From: an uncultured Candidatus Sumerlaeota bacterium
GTDB lineage: Bacteria; Sumerlaeota; Sumerlaeia; SLMS01
DNA: 64,000 nucleotides
Assembly (NCBI GenBank): GCA_964420455.1
Contig: CAYQTO010000004.1
Span: 5,385 to 69,384 of the forward strand
Direction: 5' to 3'
A model generated the notes under the pieces. That model searched no databases. It saw nothing but the letters and a program-made list of their open reading frames with translations, and was not told where the DNA came from. A program made the translations under genes and the position numbers. Position 1 is the stretch's first letter, and the number at the start of each line of letters is the position of its first letter. Of the stretch, positions 12,986-54,914 are shown in pieces.

Positions 12986-14794
12986 ATGGTTTCCCCAGTC
13001 ACTCGCGCCGTCACCCTTGCCATCGCGCCACTTCTGGCCGTAGTTGCCGGCATGGCTCAGGCCCAGACACCGGTCGACTTTGCCCGCACCCAGCCGGTCT
13101 TCGAGGACACGCCCGCGCGGATCGTCGACGAGTCGCGATTCGCCAAGGGCGCGCCCCCGGCGCCGGGCATCCCCCTCCGTCCCCCGGATCTCGGGTGGGT
13201 CGACGCCACCCTCGGCTCCATGACCCTCGAACAGAAGGTCGGCCAAATGTTCATGGCCAGTCAGTCCGTCGACCGACTGACCCACGTGAACAATTACCAC
13301 ATTGGCGGGTTCATCTTCATCGGCAACGGCCAGGATGCGGCCGACATCGTATCTGTCGTGAATGCGCTGCAGGCCGAGGCCGACATCCCGCTTTGGTTTT
13401 CCCTCGACGCGGAGGCGGGCATCGGGGCGCGCGTGGGAAACGCCACCATTTTTCCCATGGCCATGGCCTTTGGCGCGGTGGAGGACCGCTCGCTCATCGA
13501 GGATCTCGGCCGCATCACCGCCCGCGAGTCCCAGGCCCTCGGCGTCCAGACCGTCCTCGGCCCGGTCGTCGACGTAAACTCCGAGCCCATTAACCCGATC
13601 ATCTCCACCCGGTCCTACGGCGATGTGCCTGCCCGCATTGCCGTCTCCGCGGGTCGATTCCTCCAAGGTGCCGCCGCCGAGGGGGCCCTCTGTACCCTCA
13701 AGCACTACCCCGGACACGGCGCCACCAAGGGCGACAGTCACAATGCGCTCCCCGGCGTCGACATCCCCCGCGCCGCCATCGAGCAGATTCACATCGGCCC
13801 CTATCGCCACCTTATCGCCGATCCCGGGGTGGACCTCGTCATGACCGCCCACGTCTGGTACAGCGACGTCTACCCGGACGCCCCCTTTCCCGCCACTCTG
13901 TCGCCCATCTTCAACGACGAGATTCTCCGCGGCGACCTCGGCTTCGAGGGCGTTCTCATCTCCGACGCTTTCGGCATGGCGGGTCTGGCGATTGCCGTTC
14001 CCGACGAGACGGAACGCGCCCTCCAGGCCATCGAGTCCGGTGTTGATGTCATCCTGGACACGGGCGACATCGGGACAATGTACAATGGTGTGCTTGCCGC
14101 GGTCCAGGCGGGCCGCCTCACTGTCGACCGTATAGACGAGTCCGCCCGCCGCGTGCTGATTGCCAAGAGCCGCGCGGGCCTCCCCGAGCGGGCCACAGTT
14201 GACCCCGTCGCCTGGCAGACAGTCCTCAACCATCCGGAACACCGCGCCGCTGTGCGCCGCGTCGCCGAGGCCGCCTTCACCGAAGCACGCAACAACATCG
14301 GCGCGCCCGTGATTCAGCCCGGCGACGACGTGCTCCTGCTCACGCTCAGCGCCCAGACACTCATCTTCTATCGCTTCTCTCCCCAGCCCCTCCGGGACGC
14401 CCTCGCGAGCCGCGTTGCCAGCCTCGACATGCGCCACGTCAGCCTTTCCGTCAGCACCGCCGAACGCACCGAGACCATTCTCGCCGCCGCCGCCGCCGAC
14501 AAGGTCATCATCGCCGGCTACGACTGGACGCGAATCTCCTCCTCCAGCCAGGTCGAACTTATCAATGCGCTCAGCACCGCCGACACTCCGGTCACGTACC
14601 TCAGTTTCGGCGCCCCATACCACTACCTGCAGATACCGAACGTCGACGCGTTCTTCTGCGGATACGCCACGGTCCCGCAAATGCAGGAGGTCGCGGCGGA
14701 GGTGTTGGTTGGCGAGCGCGCCGCGGTCGGCCGTCTTCCCGTCATCGTCGACGGCCTCCCGGTGACCGATTCGACGCACCTCCGGATTTACTGA
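12986..14794 (+). CDS. glycoside hydrolase family 3 protein (NagZ / beta-hexosaminidase-like N-domain plus C-terminal domain)
   Basis: Signal-like N-terminus. Shows KVGQMFMA and KHYPGHGATKGDSH (the GH3 KH(F/Y)PGHG motif). Confidence 0.85.
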   Translation: MVSPVTRAVTLAIAPLLAVVAGMAQAQTPVDFARTQPVFEDTPARIVDESRFAKGAPPAPGIPLRPPDLGWVDATLGSMTLEQKVGQMFMASQSVDRLTHVNNYHIGGFIFIGNGQDAADIVSVVNALQAEADIPLWFSLDAEAGIGARVGNATIFPMAMAFGAVEDRSLIEDLGRITARESQALGVQTVLGPVVDVNSEPINPIISTRSYGDVPARIAVSAGRFLQGAAAEGALCTLKHYPGHGATKGDSHNALPGVDIPRAAIEQIHIGPYRHLIADPGVDLVMTAHVWYSDVYPDAPFPATLSPIFNDEILRGDLGFEGVLISDAFGMAGLAIAVPDETERALQAIESGVDVILDTGDIGTMYNGVLAAVQAGRLTVDRIDESARRVLIAKSRAGLPERATVDPVAWQTVLNHPEHRAAVRRVAEAAFTEARNNIGAPVIQPGDDVLLLTLSAQTLIFYRFSPQPLRDALASRVASLDMRHVSLSVSTAERTETILAAAAADKVIIAGYDWTRISSSSQVELINALSTADTPVTYLSFGAPYHYLQIPNVDAFFCGYATVPQMQEVAAEVLVGERAAVGRLPVIVDGLPVTDSTHLRIY

Positions 14795-28418: not shown

Positions 28419-29990
28419 ATGCGGGGAAACGTGACGCCCATGATGAGTGATGCCCACAGCCTCGTGCAACGCCCTCCCGACCGGGCAGCGCTGGTTGTCC
28501 TCGGGGCCGACAGCCCCCAGCTCCGTGCCGCCCCCCAGTGGTTCCTTCATCGCCTCGGCATCCGTGCAAAGTTGCCGATCCCGTTGCATGCGGGGCGCCC
28601 CGATGGACTCGGGGCACTTGGCGACCTTGCTTCCGACGTCGATCGCCTTAAATGCCCGATTTCCGATGCGATTGTTGAACTTCAAGGTGAGGGAGATCCA
28701 ACGCAGATAACCGTTCTGGTGCAGGCGCGCCCCTCCGCCGGCGGGACCTTCGACCGACGCGCCGCCGTGGAAATGTTGTTGGACGACGTCACCGATGTCG
28801 TCCGGGAACGCCGCCGTGCCCTTGGCGTGGGGTCCTTCCATGGCCTTGTCGGGCGCTCTTTCGCGATGATCGAGGTTTATCAGAAGATCGCCACCTACGG
28901 CCCCACGGAGGCGCCGATCCTCATCACCGGCGAGACGGGGACGGGAAAGGAACTGGTCGCCCGTGCCCTCCACGAGCGGTCCGCCCGCGCCGGCGGGCCC
29001 TTCGTCGCCGTCAACTGCAGTGCGCTTACTTCGGAACTCTTCGAAAGCGAACTGTTCGGCCACGAAAAGGGATCCTTCACCGGTGCCTATCGCCAGCACA
29101 AGGGGCGCTTCGAGCGGGCTGACGGAGGGACGTTGTTCCTCGACGAAATCGGGGACATGCCGCTGATGAGTCAGGCGAAGATGCTGCGGACTCTTGAGGA
29201 AGGGGTGATCGAGCGAGTCGGCGGCGAGGCCGAGCGCCATGTAGACGTTCGCGTCGTCGCCGCGACCAACGTCGCCCTCGAACAGGCGGTCACCATTCGG
29301 CGTTTTCGCGCAGACCTCTATCACCGCATTTCGGTTCTGCGGGTGCATGTGCCCCCCTTGCGCGAGCGGACCGACGACATCCCCCTGCTGGTCGATCACT
29401 TCCTCGCGACCTTCAACCGTCGCTACAACAAGACCATCCGCCGTGTCACACCCGAGGCGCTGCGGATTCTGTCCGAGTACTACTGGCCGGGTAACATCCG
29501 CGAGTTGCGCAATGTCATCGAGAGACTGGTTGTCGAGGCAAACTCCGACGCGATCGGGGGGCAGGCCTTGCGCGGCTGGCTCCGCGAGCGTGAGTACCTC
29601 ATGCCGGGTGCCTGGAACGCGGATTCCGCCGACACCCCCCGCCGGCCGATTTACACCTCCGGGCCCGATGAGGAAGAACTTGGCCCCGCGCTTTCCGGTT
29701 CACCCCGGTTTGGCAACGCGTTCTGGGGGACTGTCGCCGGGGCCCCGCCGCTGTTCTCCAAACCGGCGGAAATCGGCACCGATCCCGCCACGTCTCCGCG
29801 GACGACCCAGGAGACCAATCCTGAGGAAACCGTCGACCTCACCGTCGAGACAATCCGCACGGCCTATCGCAACGCCTCCGGCAACCTGACGAAGGCCGCC
29901 CGTCTCCTGGGGGTGCACAAGGCGACGCTTTACCGTCATATGAAGCGCCTCGGCCTCACGCGCGAGGCGCTCGAGGAGGAAGCGACGTGA
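28419..29990 (+). CDS. sigma-54-dependent transcriptional activator (bEBP): unassigned N-terminal domain, AAA+ core, long low-complexity linker, Fis-type HTH
   Basis: Walker A GETGTGKELVARALH; sigma-54 contact loop variant GHEKGSFTGA; Walker B GGTLFLDEIGDM; C-terminal HTH NLTKAARLLGVHKATLYRHMKRLGL. The start is uncertain (ATG at 28419, 28440 or 28443). Confidence 0.9.
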   Translation: MRGNVTPMMSDAHSLVQRPPDRAALVVLGADSPQLRAAPQWFLHRLGIRAKLPIPLHAGRPDGLGALGDLASDVDRLKCPISDAIVELQGEGDPTQITVLVQARPSAGGTFDRRAAVEMLLDDVTDVVRERRRALGVGSFHGLVGRSFAMIEVYQKIATYGPTEAPILITGETGTGKELVARALHERSARAGGPFVAVNCSALTSELFESELFGHEKGSFTGAYRQHKGRFERADGGTLFLDEIGDMPLMSQAKMLRTLEEGVIERVGGEAERHVDVRVVAATNVALEQAVTIRRFRADLYHRISVLRVHVPPLRERTDDIPLLVDHFLATFNRRYNKTIRRVTPEALRILSEYYWPGNIRELRNVIERLVVEANSDAIGGQALRGWLREREYLMPGAWNADSADTPRRPIYTSGPDEEELGPALSGSPRFGNAFWGTVAGAPPLFSKPAEIGTDPATSPRTTQETNPEETVDLTVETIRTAYRNASGNLTKAARLLGVHKATLYRHMKRLGLTREALEEEAT

Positions 29991-30316
29991 GCAGCTATTC
30001 GGCGGGGGAGCGTGAGCTGGTTGAATTGCTGGAAAACTCCGCAGGCCAATGGACCCTTGTTCTGCTTGGCGAGCCCTGGCACCCGGGCACCGGCACGATG
30101 TCGCAGCGCCTGCGCGAGCACGGCCGAGCCATGGAGGCGCGTCTCATCGAGCTCCCGCTTGCGTCGTACAGCGACTGGGCGCGCGGGCATGGTGTCGTGG
30201 CCGTACCGACAACGCTGGTCTTTCGAGGACCCCGTCTTGTTGGCCGCATCCCCGGTATTCTTGAGGAGCAGGAGGTCGGAGACATCCTGGCGCGGTTCGC
30301 TCTCGAATCCAGCTGA
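29987..30316 (+). CDS. thioredoxin-fold protein lacking the CxxC active site
   Basis: 109 aa with a GTG start in a GTGA overlap with the activator's stop. WHPGTG replaces WCGPC. The cis-Pro region VVAVPTTLVFRGPRLVGRIPG is conserved. Confidence 0.55.
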   Translation: MSSYSAGERELVELLENSAGQWTLVLLGEPWHPGTGTMSQRLREHGRAMEARLIELPLASYSDWARGHGVVAVPTTLVFRGPRLVGRIPGILEEQEVGDILARFALESS

Positions 30317-30412: not shown

Positions 30413-30862
30413 TCAGCTGACTGCGACGGTGATCTTGCGGGGCTTCGCCTCTTCGGCGAAGGGAAGGCTGACGTTGAGGACGCCATTGCGATACGCGGCG
30501 GCGACACGGGACTGGTCGATCTTGCGACCGAGGCGGAACTGGCGGAAATAGCCAACAGGCCGGTGTTCGCGATACAGGTAGTCCTCGTCTACGGTGGCCT
30601 TGGCGGGAGTGCCGCGCAAAGTCAGCACGTCGTTCTCGACCGACAGCTCCACGTGATCCTGCTCAAGGCCGGGCATGTCGGCGGCGATATAGAGACCGTC
30701 TTCCTTCTCATAGATGTCGACGGCGGGGCTGACGTAGCGCTCGGGCTCGTGGGTCTGCTCGGTCCGTTCGGCGATGGCGGTGTTCTGTTCGTTCGTCGTG
30801 GGGACGGTGTTCTCTGGCATGGGTCTGTCTACTTTGGTCGGGTTGATGGTGGAGGGGTTCAT
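30413..30862 (-). CDS. small heat-shock protein (Hsp20/alpha-crystallin family)
   Basis: 149 aa. Alpha-crystallin domain PAVDIYEKEDGLYIAADMPGLEQDHVELSVENDVLTLRG ... NGVLNVSLPF. Confidence 0.9.
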   Translation of the reverse strand: MNPSTINPTKVDRPMPENTVPTTNEQNTAIAERTEQTHEPERYVSPAVDIYEKEDGLYIAADMPGLEQDHVELSVENDVLTLRGTPAKATVDEDYLYREHRPVGYFRQFRLGRKIDQSRVAAAYRNGVLNVSLPFAEEAKPRKITVAVS

Positions 30863-30865
30863 GGT

Positions 30866-31318
30866 TCAGGCGACGGCTACGGTGATCTGGCGGGGCTTGG
30901 CCTTCTCGGCCTTGGACAGGTGAACCCGAAGGACGCCGTTTTTGTACTCGGCGGAGACTTTGGACTCGTCGATTTCGACAGGAAGCGTCAGCGTGCGAAC
31001 GAATTTGCCGGCGGCACGCTCGGAACGATGGACGTTTTCCCGCGCCACCTCCGAGGGGATGCCCGTCTTTTCGCCGCTGATCGTCAGTTGGTTGCGCTCG
31101 ACGCTGACGTCGAGGCTTTCAGGGTTCAGACCCGGAGCGACCGCCTCCACATGGAGAGCGTCGTTATCGCCGGTCATGTTCAGCAGCGGGTAGCTGCGGG
31201 GGTTTTGCCCGGGCAGAAAGCCGAGCGGGTTGCGGGAGCCACGGCGGACCGCGTCGAGGGCACGGTCGATATCGCGGCGGAGGGCGTCGAACTCGGTGAA
31301 GGGATCGAACTGGAACAT
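30866..31318 (-). CDS. small heat-shock protein (Hsp20/alpha-crystallin family)
   Basis: Trimmed to MFQFDPFTEFDALRRDIDR..., with GGAGGA 6 nt upstream. Shows LHVEAVAPGLNPESLDVSVERNQLTISGEK ... NGVLRVHLSK. Lies 3 nt upstream of the second hsp20. Confidence 0.9.
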   Translation of the reverse strand: MFQFDPFTEFDALRRDIDRALDAVRRGSRNPLGFLPGQNPRSYPLLNMTGDNDALHVEAVAPGLNPESLDVSVERNQLTISGEKTGIPSEVARENVHRSERAAGKFVRTLTLPVEIDESKVSAEYKNGVLRVHLSKAEKAKPRQITVAVA

Positions 31319-31377
31319 GGTCGTTCCTCCGGTTGGGGATGCGCCCACTCGGGGCGTTGCAGTCGCCAAAGGAGAAG

Positions 31378-31392
31378 TCAAAATGCCTGCCA
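31378..31392 (-). promoter_or_regulatory. candidate sigma-54 (-24/-12) promoter for the hsp20 operon
   Basis: The minus strand reads TGGCAG-GCATT-TTGA against the consensus TGGCAC-N5-TTGC. Spacing is correct, with two mismatches including the -12 C. It lies 60 nt upstream of the ATG at 31318. Confidence 0.4.
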
Positions 31393-31410: not shown

Positions 31411-31486
31411 GCGTCGCAATCGGCTGATAAAGCGTCGCAGAGGAGCGATTCGCACCGCTTCGACGTCGCAGGCGGACGTCGCAATG
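31411..31486. promoter_or_regulatory. array of four CGTCGCA repeats (candidate enhancer/UAS or operator) between divergent promoters
   Basis: The four copies are GCGTCGCAAT (31411), GCGTCGCAGA (31432), TTCGACGTCGCA (31459..31470, an 11/12 palindrome) and GACGTCGCAAT (31476). GATTCGC also occurs twice (31405, 31446). Confidence 0.45.
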
Positions 31487-31533: not shown

Positions 31534-31549
31534 TGGCACGCATCTATCT
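31534..31549 (+). promoter_or_regulatory. candidate sigma-54 (-24/-12) promoter for the Zn-metallopeptidase gene
   Basis: TGGCACG-CATC-TATC. The -24 element is perfect and the -12 element is poor (no GC). It lies ~30 nt upstream of the ATG at 31579 and resembles the hsp20 element (TGGCAsGCATyT). Confidence 0.35.
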
Positions 31550-31578: not shown

Positions 31579-32277
31579 ATGTCTGATGACGAGGTGACAA
31601 CAGCGATGCTTTACTTTGCCGGTCTTGGAATCCTGCTGATTTTCAGCCTTTGGGCGCAGTGGTCGGTAAAGTCTGCTTACGGCAAGTATTCGAAGATACG
31701 GGGGAGCAGCGGCCTGACAGGAGCAGAGGCGGCCCGGGAAATGTTGAGTCGTGCCGGCATTGCCAATGTTGGAATCGAGGCGACCCGTGGCATGCTGACG
31801 GACCACTACGACCCTCGCAAGAAGGTCATCCGCCTTTCGGAGGGCGTCTACAACTCGTCGAGCCTCGCCGCGGTTGGAATCGCCTGCCACGAGGCGGGAC
31901 ACGCGGTGCAGGACGCCCGCAACTATACTCCGCTCGTGATCCGCAACGCCGCGGTACCGATGGCGAGCTTCGGCTCGAACACCGCCTTCATCCTGATTTT
32001 CGTCGGCCTGCTGTTGAACTCGCTCGGGATGGCGGTGATCGGCCTCGTGCTGTTTGCAGGCGTGGTGTTCTTCCAGTTGGTAAACCTGCCGGTGGAGTTC
32101 AACGCTTCGGCGCGCGCCAAGGAAGCCCTGGTAAATTACGGGATCGTATCGCCCGGTCGGGAAGCCGAAGGCGTCTCGAGCGTGCTGAACGCCGCCGCGA
32201 TGACTTACGTTGCCGCGACCGCGACCGCGGTGTTCCAGCTCCTGTACTTTCTCATGATCGTTCTCAACCGGCGCTGA
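31579..32277 (+). CDS. membrane zinc metallopeptidase (YugP / Zn_peptidase_2 family)
   Basis: 232 aa. N-terminal TM segment, HEAGHAVQ zinc motif, C-terminal TM segments. Matches the pattern LWAQWSVKSAYGKYSKI...LTGAEAAREML typical of YugP-like proteins. Confidence 0.8.
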   Translation: MSDDEVTTAMLYFAGLGILLIFSLWAQWSVKSAYGKYSKIRGSSGLTGAEAAREMLSRAGIANVGIEATRGMLTDHYDPRKKVIRLSEGVYNSSSLAAVGIACHEAGHAVQDARNYTPLVIRNAAVPMASFGSNTAFILIFVGLLLNSLGMAVIGLVLFAGVVFFQLVNLPVEFNASARAKEALVNYGIVSPGREAEGVSSVLNAAAMTYVAATATAVFQLLYFLMIVLNRR

Positions 32278-39965: not shown

Positions 39966-41136
39966 GCCCCGTTCCGGAAGGGCAGTTGGCTGGCTTCTGA
40001 TCCACCTGGTGCTGCTCGTGGTGGCGCTGGTCACGCTCACGCCGATGGTGTGGCTGATCGCGGCAACGTTCAAGAGCCCCCGGTATATCTTCAGCTATAC
40101 GTTCTTCGGACCTGCGTACGAGGAACCGGCCGGGCGCAATGTGGTCGCGTGGGAATTCTGGGAGACCTTCGACGATGTCTATACAGGCCCCGGGACGGCG
40201 AACGATGCCCTTGCCGCCGCTCTCGACGAGGTTGGTGTCACGCCACCGCCCGGATTCGCCGCGGACTGGAATGTTGAAGAGTTCCCCGACGACTTCACCG
40301 CCGAGGACCTCCGTGAGACCGCTGCTCTCATCCACGGGCAGACCGGCCTGGCCGACGACGAGCGCGATCTCTTTGGCCGTATCTTCTTCGAAACCTTCGC
40401 CCAGCGCTTTCAGGACAACTACACGGGCATCCCCCACGAGGAACCCCGTGCCGTCCTTCCCACCCTGTCGCTTCAGAATTTCGCCAACCTGAACGCAAGC
40501 ATCCCCTTTCCCCGCTACGTCATCAATTCCTTCTTCGTGACCTGCGTCACGGTGCTGATCCAGCTGTTCCTCGCGTCTCTCGGTGGGTTTGCCCTCGCCA
40601 AGTACAGCTTCCGCTTCAAACAGCCGATCATGATCCTCATGTTGCTTACGATGATGATCCCAGGCCACGTCATGCTCGCACCTTTGTACGAGCTCATCTA
40701 CCACATGGGCTTTGTTGACACCTACACCGGGCTGATCATCCCCGGCGCCGTGAACGTGTTTGGGATGTTCCTCTTTCGCCAGTCGATGTTGCAGATACCG
40801 AACGACCTGGTGGAGGCAGGCCGCGTGGATGGCTGCACGGAATTCCGAATCTACTGGAGCATCGCCCTCCCCGTTTCTCGCCCGATGATCGGCGCGTTCA
40901 CCCTCATCTCCTTCATGATGGCGTGGAACAACTTCCTGTGGCCACAGATCATCCTCCAGACGCAGGAGCGCTTTACGCTGCCGATTGGGCTGAACCAAAT
41001 GGTCAGCGTGTACGCGGGAAACTACGGTGCGTTGATGGCGGGAACCTTTCTGTCGGTTCTGCCGGTGGTGGTGCTCTTTTTCCTGCTCCAGCGCGAGTTC
41101 ATCAGTGGCCTGACCGCCGGCGCGGTAAAAGGCTGA
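39958..41136 (+). CDS. ABC sugar transporter permease (MalG/UgpE-like) with an enlarged first periplasmic loop
   Basis: 392 aa. EAA loop VEAGRVDGCTEFRIYWSIALPVSRP. About 150 aa lie between TM1 and TM2. Confidence 0.85.
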   Translation: MNRPRSGRAVGWLLIHLVLLVVALVTLTPMVWLIAATFKSPRYIFSYTFFGPAYEEPAGRNVVAWEFWETFDDVYTGPGTANDALAAALDEVGVTPPPGFAADWNVEEFPDDFTAEDLRETAALIHGQTGLADDERDLFGRIFFETFAQRFQDNYTGIPHEEPRAVLPTLSLQNFANLNASIPFPRYVINSFFVTCVTVLIQLFLASLGGFALAKYSFRFKQPIMILMLLTMMIPGHVMLAPLYELIYHMGFVDTYTGLIIPGAVNVFGMFLFRQSMLQIPNDLVEAGRVDGCTEFRIYWSIALPVSRPMIGAFTLISFMMAWNNFLWPQIILQTQERFTLPIGLNQMVSVYAGNYGALMAGTFLSVLPVVVLFFLLQREFISGLTAGAVKG

Positions 41137-41156
41137 CCGCCGCGGGTGCGCCGCCG

Positions 41157-41170
41157 GTGCGACGTCGCAC
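41157..41170. promoter_or_regulatory. perfect 14-bp palindrome GTGCGACGTCGCAC upstream of clpB (candidate operator/UAS)
   Basis: The sequence is self-complementary. A further half-site CGTCGCA lies at 41202..41208, and an inverted repeat GGATTC-N5-GAATCC at 41186..41202. Confidence 0.5.
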
Positions 41171-41213
41171 GGGCCAGAGCGGGGTGGATTCCCTTCGAAT
41201 CCGTCGCATACTC

Positions 41214-41228
41214 GGGCACGTTTTTCGG
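41214..41228 (+). promoter_or_regulatory. weak sigma-54-like element upstream of clpB
   Basis: GGGCACG-TTTT-TCGG. The -24 half is good and the -12 half is poor. It lies 40 nt upstream of the ATG at 41268. Confidence 0.25.
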
Positions 41229-41267
41229 TCCTCCTTTTTTCATCCAATTCCTTGAGTGAGGTGGAGA

Positions 41268-43901
<2,634 letters not shown>

Positions 43902-54667: not shown

Positions 54668-54702
54668 GATCACCACTTCAGCGGCCTCCTGCGACGTTGG
54701 TT

Positions 54703-54914
54703 GGGAGAGACAGCCCTGGAGCCGATGCGACAATACTGGGAGCCTTTTGTTCCGGCGGCGGCCATGCCCCTTCGGGGGATGCTTCCAGGCTGGAATGCGG
54801 GCGCCCACTTGTGAGACCCAGGGTTTCACGAGGCTGTCTGCTCCGACGGCGAAGCGGGAGGCTGTAGCATCTTTCACCGCCCGGGCCCCGCAGGGACCCG
54901 GGCGCTTTCTTTTT
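54703..54914 (+). ncRNA. candidate structured non-coding RNA (unassigned class) ending in a strong intrinsic terminator
   Basis: No credible ORF. A long-range helix pairs GGGAGAGACAGCC (54703..54715) with GGCTGTCTGCTCC (54832..54844). There is a UUCG-tetraloop hairpin CAUGCCCC-UUCG-GGGGAUG (54763..54781). The terminator CGCCCGGGCCC-cgca-GGGaCCCGGGCG plus CTTTCTTTTT lies at 54878..54914. Confidence 0.45.

Follow-up and report, generated by a model that had tools for sequence, protein, structure and literature searches.

A candidate sigma-54 activator-enhancer pair at the clpB and hsp20 genes of an uncultured Sumerlaeota bacterium

Heat-shock control by sigma-32, HrcA/CIRCE, HspR/HAIR and CtsR is textbook knowledge for a few cultured phyla, and to our knowledge almost nothing has been described for uncultured lineages. 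HrcA, HspR and CtsR act by repression. In E. coli, NtrC at glnAp2, PspF at pspA and ZraR at the divergent genes zraP<>zraSR use a dyad upstream activating sequence (UAS) located ~70-150 bp upstream of a sigma-54 promoter (GG-N10-G[C]). Precedents for sigma-54-dependent heat-shock genes are lonD of Myxococcus xanthus, which is activated by HsfA/HsfB and hence has a dedicated NtrC-type activator, and ibpB of E. coli, which has a sigma-54 promoter. Furthermore, for Planctomycetota and Bacteroidota, the available part of a recent study reports sigma-54 promoters that were predicted in front of IbpA/HSP20 (COG0071), Clp ATPase (COG0542) and GroES/EL genes (PMC12316311, PLoS One 2025). In our literature search, no publication came up that assigns a dedicated activator or an enhancer sequence to sigma-54-dependent HSP20, Clp or GroESL genes.

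Here we analysed a window of 64,000 nucleotides from an uncultured Candidatus Sumerlaeota bacterium, to which all coordinates without a contig label refer. The assembly carrying the window (3.73 Mb) is called G000 and its relatives are labelled G001 onward; the activator, ClpB and HSP20 were searched in 40 of these relatives. We consider it likely, with a probability of roughly 0.75, that a palindrome (41158-41169) and a half-site (41203-41208) upstream of clpB serve as the UAS of a predicted sigma-54 activator encoded at 28419-29990, which would drive a regulon of small heat-shock proteins (sHSPs), ClpB and a Zn-peptidase. This would represent a new activator-enhancer pair of an already known type of switch in an uncultured lineage. 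As in the predictions for Planctomycetota and Bacteroidota, hsp20, clpB and groES carry sigma-54-type promoters here. In its available part, that study gives promoter predictions and names no activator or enhancer, whereas we propose a specific pair of both in another lineage.

The clpB gene (41268-43901, plus strand) encodes 877 amino acids from an ATG at 41268 that is preceded by GAGGTGGAG; the frame is open from a GTG at 41256, and the product matches the Pfam families Clp_N, AAA, AAA_lid_9, AAA_2 and ClpB_D2-small. Upstream, a gene for a sugar ABC permease, confirmed as such by Pfam, ends at 41136. The perfect palindrome GTGCGACGTCGCAC, which belongs to neither strand, follows after 20 nt at 41157-41170; its core TGCGAC|GTCGCA covers 41158-41169 and forms the distal part of the predicted UAS. 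A sigma-54-type promoter, GGGCACG-TTTT-TCGG, lies on the plus strand at 41214-41228, with the -24 GG at 41215-41216 and a weak -12 that reads TCGG instead of TTGC. The centre of the palindrome is situated ~52 bp 5' of this GG, or at about -76 relative to the predicted transcription start, which is the near end of the usual UAS range; no IHF-like site was evident here. A second, promoter-proximal half-site, CGTCGCA (41202-41208, plus strand; GTCGCA at 41203-41208, or -36 to -31), is found 33 nt from the palindrome and is separated from the -24 element by the five nucleotides TACTC. A sigma-70-like promoter was not found in 40900-41400. The stretch from the distal site to the promoter contains the strandless inverted repeat GGATTC-CCTTC-GAATCC (41186-41202), for which we saw no evidence of a function; it was rejected as a functional element, being one of 30 perfect inverted repeats of 6 bp with a 5-nt spacer in the window, a frequency at chance level, and not being conserved in relatives. 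A preliminary description of this DNA had listed the palindrome, the half-site, this repeat and a sigma-54-like element, all of which were recovered where it had placed them.

With CIRCE/HrcA, HAIR/HspR, the CtsR box and sigma-32, this arrangement has in common that one cis-element is shared by chaperone genes. The sequences of CIRCE and HAIR differ from the motif at clpB and hsp20, as the preliminary description had already proposed, and the control proposed here is positive, whereas HrcA, HspR and CtsR repress. CIRCE half-sites (TTAGCACTC-N9-GAGTGCTAA) were absent upstream of clpB, hsp20, dnaK and groES, and hrcA (PF01628) was missing in 21 of 21 relatives, in which control profiles were detected. 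The HAIR sequence (CTTGAGT-N7-ACTCAAG) is represented upstream of clpB by a lone CTTGAGT at 41251-41257, just 5' of the ribosome-binding site, which is probably a chance occurrence since the inverted partner ACTCAAG is absent. In these 21 genomes, which come from the family and order, no sigma factor reached the cut-off for RpoH. Each of these genomes encodes a sigma-70-family protein of ~300 amino acids that reaches 130-150 bits against the RpoH model.

On its own, a perfect 14-bp palindrome is unremarkable; the window contains 4 and the assembly 697 of them. The 12-mer TGCGACGTCGCA has a single exact copy genome-wide (0.64 expected) and one-mismatch copies number 8 (21 expected), so that by both counts the full palindrome is not enriched in the 3.73-Mb assembly. 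The heptamer CGTCGCA is under-represented in the assembly (523 copies, ~1079 expected), and single heptamers are not more common in its intergenic than in its coding sequence. Its clustering, however, exceeds chance: 7 of the 11 copies in the window belong to the hsp20 and clpB regions, and groups of at least three heptamers with gaps of at most 60 bp occur at just two loci in 3.73 Mb, one upstream of hsp20 and the other upstream of clpB. Other intergenic one-mismatch sites of G000 (on contigs C111, C65, C87 and C91) were discarded, as stress genes nearby or convincing promoters are absent.

The hsp20 cluster lies in a 260-bp spacer between two tandem hsp20 genes (30866-31321 and 30413-30862, together 30413-31321, minus strand; Pfam HSP20) and the divergent gene of a Zn_peptidase_2 membrane metallopeptidase (31579-32277, plus strand; PF04298, E = 1e-85). 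All four half-sites of this strandless array (31412-31483; starts at 31412, 31433, 31464 and 31477) fall into the spacer, which agrees with the fourfold heptamer noted earlier for this region. The exact 12-mer of clpB was, as also noted earlier, found nowhere else in the window; a one-mismatch version of it, TTCGACGTCGCA, is located within the array at 31459-31470. The array is flanked by TGGCAGGCATTTTGA toward hsp20 and by TGGCACGCATCTATC toward the peptidase gene. The former is a sigma-54-type promoter of the hsp20 operon (31378-31392, minus strand) that reads TTGA at -12 in G000 and is conserved in relatives; the sigma-54-type promoter of the peptidase gene, TGGCACG-CATC-TATC (31534-31548, plus strand), combines a strong -24 with a degenerate -12. 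TGGCACG occupies the same divergent position at the peptidase gene in G001, G002, G003, G005, G007, G009, G010 and G022. We treat the array as a predicted enhancer common to the divergent hsp20 and Zn-peptidase promoters. In G000 and its relatives, the Zn-peptidase promoters have a perfect TGGCACG and a -12 of TYCC or TATC without the usual G, and the clpB promoters read TCGG or TCGA at -12. Sigma-54 promoters of this lineage seem to tolerate an unusually degenerate -12.

The promoters recur in the relatives, whose ClpB orthologs share 57-80% identity. TGGCA-N7-TTG(A/C/T) was present 57-162 nt before the hsp20 ATG in 27 of 27 recovered upstream regions, and nGGCAYG-N4-TYGR was present 51-100 nt before the clpB ATG in G002, G010, G007, G008, G021, G014, G017, G032 and G038. 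Examples of clpB promoters are TGGCACGGATTTCGG (G010), TGGCATGTTTCTCGA (G007), GGGCACGACTCTCGA (G021), TGGCATGGCAATTGA (G038) and TGGCACAGGCGTTGCT (G027). Because the same element is found at the same position in at least nine relatives, what had been described as a weak sigma-54-like element behind the half-site (41214-41228) can be regarded as a conserved sigma-54-type promoter. The degenerate -12 of the clpB promoter is a genuine weakness. In genus g3 (G002 and G010; loci L121 and L122), a tRNA-like sequence lies on the opposite strand ~200 nt upstream of clpB. This genus has kept the sigma-54-type clpB promoter TGGCACGGATTTCGG and has neither the GCGAC motif nor an activator ortholog.

The comparison also placed the palindrome family 5' of these conserved hsp20 and clpB promoters. 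An identical CTGCGACGTCGCAC is found upstream of clpB in G007, related palindromic sites lie upstream of clpB in G006, G008, G014, G017, G032 and G038, and every genome with an activator ortholog has palindromes of the form TGCRACGTYGCA together with extra half-sites upstream of hsp20. The 33 sites from 18 genomes yield the consensus cnTGCRACGTYGCAng with an invariant central CG. Motif centres in the relatives are 50-125 bp 5' of the -24 GG, which is the usual range of enhancers. The additional half-site at 41202-41208, listed in the preliminary description, proved to be a conserved promoter-proximal site: GTYGCA is situated exactly 5 nt 5' of nGGCAY in the clpB promoters of four genomes (G000, G006, G008 and G017), a number that was reached in 0 of 2000 shuffles.

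The candidate gene for a sigma-54 enhancer-binding protein (28419-29990, plus strand; Pfam Sigma54_activat, AAA_lid_14 and HTH_8) encodes an N-terminal PAS-fold and an AAA+ sigma-54 interaction domain, which a long linker connects to a Fis-type helix-turn-helix (HTH). None of the named NCBIfam activator models was matched by the protein above its cut-off. Its N-terminal 145 residues (28419-28865) had no Pfam match and are conserved among orthologs; they were modelled as a PAS domain with a long C-terminal helix (AF2 pLDDT 83, pTM 0.72), for which the best Foldseek matches were short LOV proteins (E = 1e-5, TM ~0.6). In our reading of the alignment, APRWL would occupy the place of the LOV flavin-binding cysteine motif. 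A word-based homolog search with the N-terminal domain recovered the query alone, and a homology search with the activator gave only generic AAA+ paralogs, spread over many phyla, the orthologs having come from the genome search of relatives. The recognition helix of the HTH is HKATLYRHMKRLG. Its variants YRHM and YRNM loosely track sites of the GCGAC type and the GCAAC type, respectively, the N-for-H variants being found mostly in genomes with GCAAC-type sites; this may be taken as a weak hint that is phylogenetically confounded. A 109-aa ORF (29987-30316, plus strand) overlaps the activator stop codon (ATGA) and is translationally coupled to the activator gene. It shows a weak similarity to Thioredoxin_2 (E = 0.018), has no CxxC, and lies directly 3' of the activator gene in seven relatives (G001, G009, G014, G012, G008, G022 and G021), and its product may be a partner or modulator of the activator. 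Both genes converge on the hsp20 pair. The assembly has a complete rpoN (G000 C21:1637-3625, with Sigma54_AID, Sigma54_CBD and Sigma54_DBD) and ~15 activators. Thus, a downstream promoter, a sigma-54 gene, a dyad site at a distance and a linked activator gene, the parts that a sigma-54 enhancer calls for at the level of sequence, are all present.

Among 75 genomes of the phylum, 17 contain a full-length activator ortholog (52-59% identity), and G038 has an activator fragment at a contig end that was detected with a profile of the N-terminal domain. A MAG labelled Sumerlaeota that is outside this set of 75 (L037, G041) has no ortholog. At least three half-sites upstream of hsp20 were found in 16 of 16 genomes with an ortholog, compared to 1 of the 11 others (Fisher p = 1.3e-6, with no correction for phylogeny although the genomes are not independent of one another). 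The exception is G016, which has the motif and no detected ortholog; this MAG is 85% complete, and the other member of its genus does have an ortholog. The motif family is therefore present at both clpB and hsp20 in relatives and co-occurs with the activator, which supports the earlier suggestion of a chaperone-regulon enhancer linking the two genes. Genomes without an activator ortholog have retained sigma-54-type promoters and do not have the motif. Presumably a different activator serves these genomes, and it could in principle act in G000 as well. Directly upstream of clpB, the palindrome is missing in half of the ortholog-bearing genomes.

Gene order ties the same components together. The activator gene adjoins the hsp20 array in G000, G001 and G009. 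In G001, the Zn-peptidase gene, immediately followed by clpB, is oriented divergently from hsp20 beside the 109-aa ORF and the activator gene, so that the shared enhancer immediately precedes the peptidase gene and clpB. The hsp20 gene lies directly upstream of clpB in G012, in tandem with it, and in G025, G026 and G035. The permease gene as a neighbour of clpB is unique to G000, which indicates that the palindrome goes with clpB rather than with the transporter.

Like NtrC, PspF and ZraR, the 28419-29990 activator combines an AAA+ sigma-54 interaction domain with a Fis-type HTH at the C-terminus. The single enhancer between divergent promoters at zraP<>zraSR corresponds to the arrangement at hsp20 and the peptidase gene, and the Psp and Zra systems likewise have a stress or chaperone response as output. 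The differences concern the site (TGCRACGTYGCA), the half-site that abuts the -24 element, the PAS-fold sensor without a receiver domain, the proposed targets, which are cytoplasmic sHSPs and ClpB, and the scores below all named NCBIfam cut-offs. HsfA of M. xanthus is a response regulator that receives its phosphoryl group from a kinase, whereas the activator described here has a PAS-fold and no receiver domain; targets and lineage differ as well.

Other explanations of the palindrome have to be weighed against an activator site. It could be the operator of another factor whose phyletic distribution happens to resemble that of the activator, for instance a heat-shock repressor or a LacI-type regulator, with the activator binding elsewhere. 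LacI-type operators are palindromes with a central CG; the palindrome has such a centre and is found 20 nt past a sugar permease gene, the identity of the binding protein is drawn from co-occurrence, and sigma-54-type promoters persist where the activator ortholog is lacking. Nevertheless, the permease neighbour is specific to G000, yet in other genomes the palindrome is again found at clpB and hsp20, and with the exception of the proximal half-site the sites are at enhancer distance and do not overlap promoters. HrcA is missing in 21 of 21 relatives, and the activator is encoded beside the hsp20 array in G000, G001 and G009. An operator of the LacI or another type fits geometry and phyletic pattern less well, and we regard it as unlikely. 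That the clpB palindrome is a functionless chance sequence and the hsp20 array alone is real appears very unlikely to us. The 697 perfect 14-bp palindromes in the assembly and the single 12-mer against an expectation of 0.64 are what chance would produce; it would not readily account for the identical 14-mer at clpB of G007, the related sites at clpB in five further genera, the extra heptamer 33 nt away that creates one of only two clusters genome-wide, or the conserved layout of half-site, N5 and promoter.

We give hardly any credence to an element acting at the RNA level, either as a terminator or processing hairpin of the ABC-transporter operon or as a thermosensing clpB leader. The position 20 nt past the permease stop codon would suit the former, and a stem of TGCGAC (41158) and GTCGCA (41203) can form outside the GGATTC/GAATCC hairpin and enclose it. 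However, the only terminator-like match lies at 41059-41071 inside the permease gene, with none at the palindrome and no U-run after it, the region 41137-41275 folds no better than its shuffles (z = -0.58), and the predicted transcription start is 3' of the palindrome, the GGATTC repeat and the half-site. An RNA thermometer in the leaders was rejected, since the predicted 5'UTRs of clpB and hsp20 (16 cases) had no consistent stable structure and z-scores were mostly between -1 and +1. A tRNA-like reading of GGATTC...GAATCC-GTCGCA was dismissed as well, as there is neither a tRNA nor an Rfam family at this position. The sole Rfam match in the window is a 6S RNA gene at 54683-54864 (RF00013, 69.9 bits).

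If the palindrome and half-site are activator sites, the regulon would be narrow, comprising the hsp20 pair, the Zn-peptidase gene and clpB as well as clpC in one relative. In G000, clusters are present at hsp20 and clpB, and no copy of the motif was found in the upstream regions of dnaK, groESL, lon, clpP, dnaJ and ftsH. As the regulon is narrow, an enrichment test at dnaK, groEL and lon, as proposed in the preliminary description, would fail for those genes without speaking against the link between clpB and hsp20. In seven better-assembled relatives, exact TGCRACGTYGCA sites numbered 13, compared to 4 for a reversed control. The intergenic ones whose neighbours could be identified are located at hsp20, clpB and mcsB-clpC; one more intergenic site, in G014, is beside an unrelated gene, and the remainder is in coding sequence. 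The mcsB-clpC spacer of G001 (L183, G001:C50, 1350-1575) has a perfect TGCGACGTCGCA 5' of a TGGACGGATTCTTGCA element. In G000, clpC (C80, upstream of 9561) is preceded by ATGGCAGGAAACTTGAC, which closely resembles the hsp20 promoter. It may be that clpC belongs to the same or a sister regulon. Canonical sigma-54 promoters are few in G000. One of them, TGGCACCGCGATTGCC, lies outside the window on C23 (~14170-14260), ~60 nt before the groES ATG. GCGAC-type sites are absent beside this groES promoter of G000, and groESL may be sigma-54-dependent via a different activator.

Based on these comparisons, the 28419-29990 activator would work as follows. Dimers of its Fis-type HTH would occupy two sites, the palindrome (about -76) and the half-site (-36 to -31), and its AAA+ ring would contact sigma-54 RNA polymerase in the closed complex on GGGCACG-N4-TCGG (41214-41228), where ATP hydrolysis would open the promoter and allow transcription of clpB. 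The same activator would use the 31412-31483 array to switch on both divergent promoters, that of hsp20 and that of the Zn-peptidase gene, and since one activator would act at both loci, sHSPs, ClpB and the peptidase would form a single protein-damage regulon. The elements, their uniqueness in the genome, their conservation, the fixed promoter geometry and the co-occurrence with the activator were observed directly; we infer from them that the 28419-29990 product is the binding protein and that sigma-54 uses these promoters. The nature of the signal is likewise a matter of inference: it would probably enter via the N-terminal PAS-fold, possibly together with the coupled 109-aa thioredoxin-like protein. 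It may be speculated, as a tentative extension that we hold to be possible rather than probable, that the protein-damage response of this lineage is run mainly by sigma-54, with an undescribed PAS-fold activator and its Cys-less thioredoxin-like partner directly sensing heat or misfolded protein and binding TGCRACGTYGCA enhancers of the sHSP, ClpB and Zn-peptidase genes, and in some genomes of the ClpC gene.

If this is true, the sigma-32, HrcA, HspR and CtsR systems would be joined by a distinct heat-shock circuit under positive control. The predicted circuit is legible from sequence, with a PAS-fold activator, an enhancer, three sigma-54-type promoters and a disaggregation regulon, and it would add a concrete candidate activator to the purely promoter-based predictions of sigma-54-driven chaperone genes. 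It also offers a defined pair of DNA and protein that lends itself to tests in E. coli and requires no culture of the source organism.
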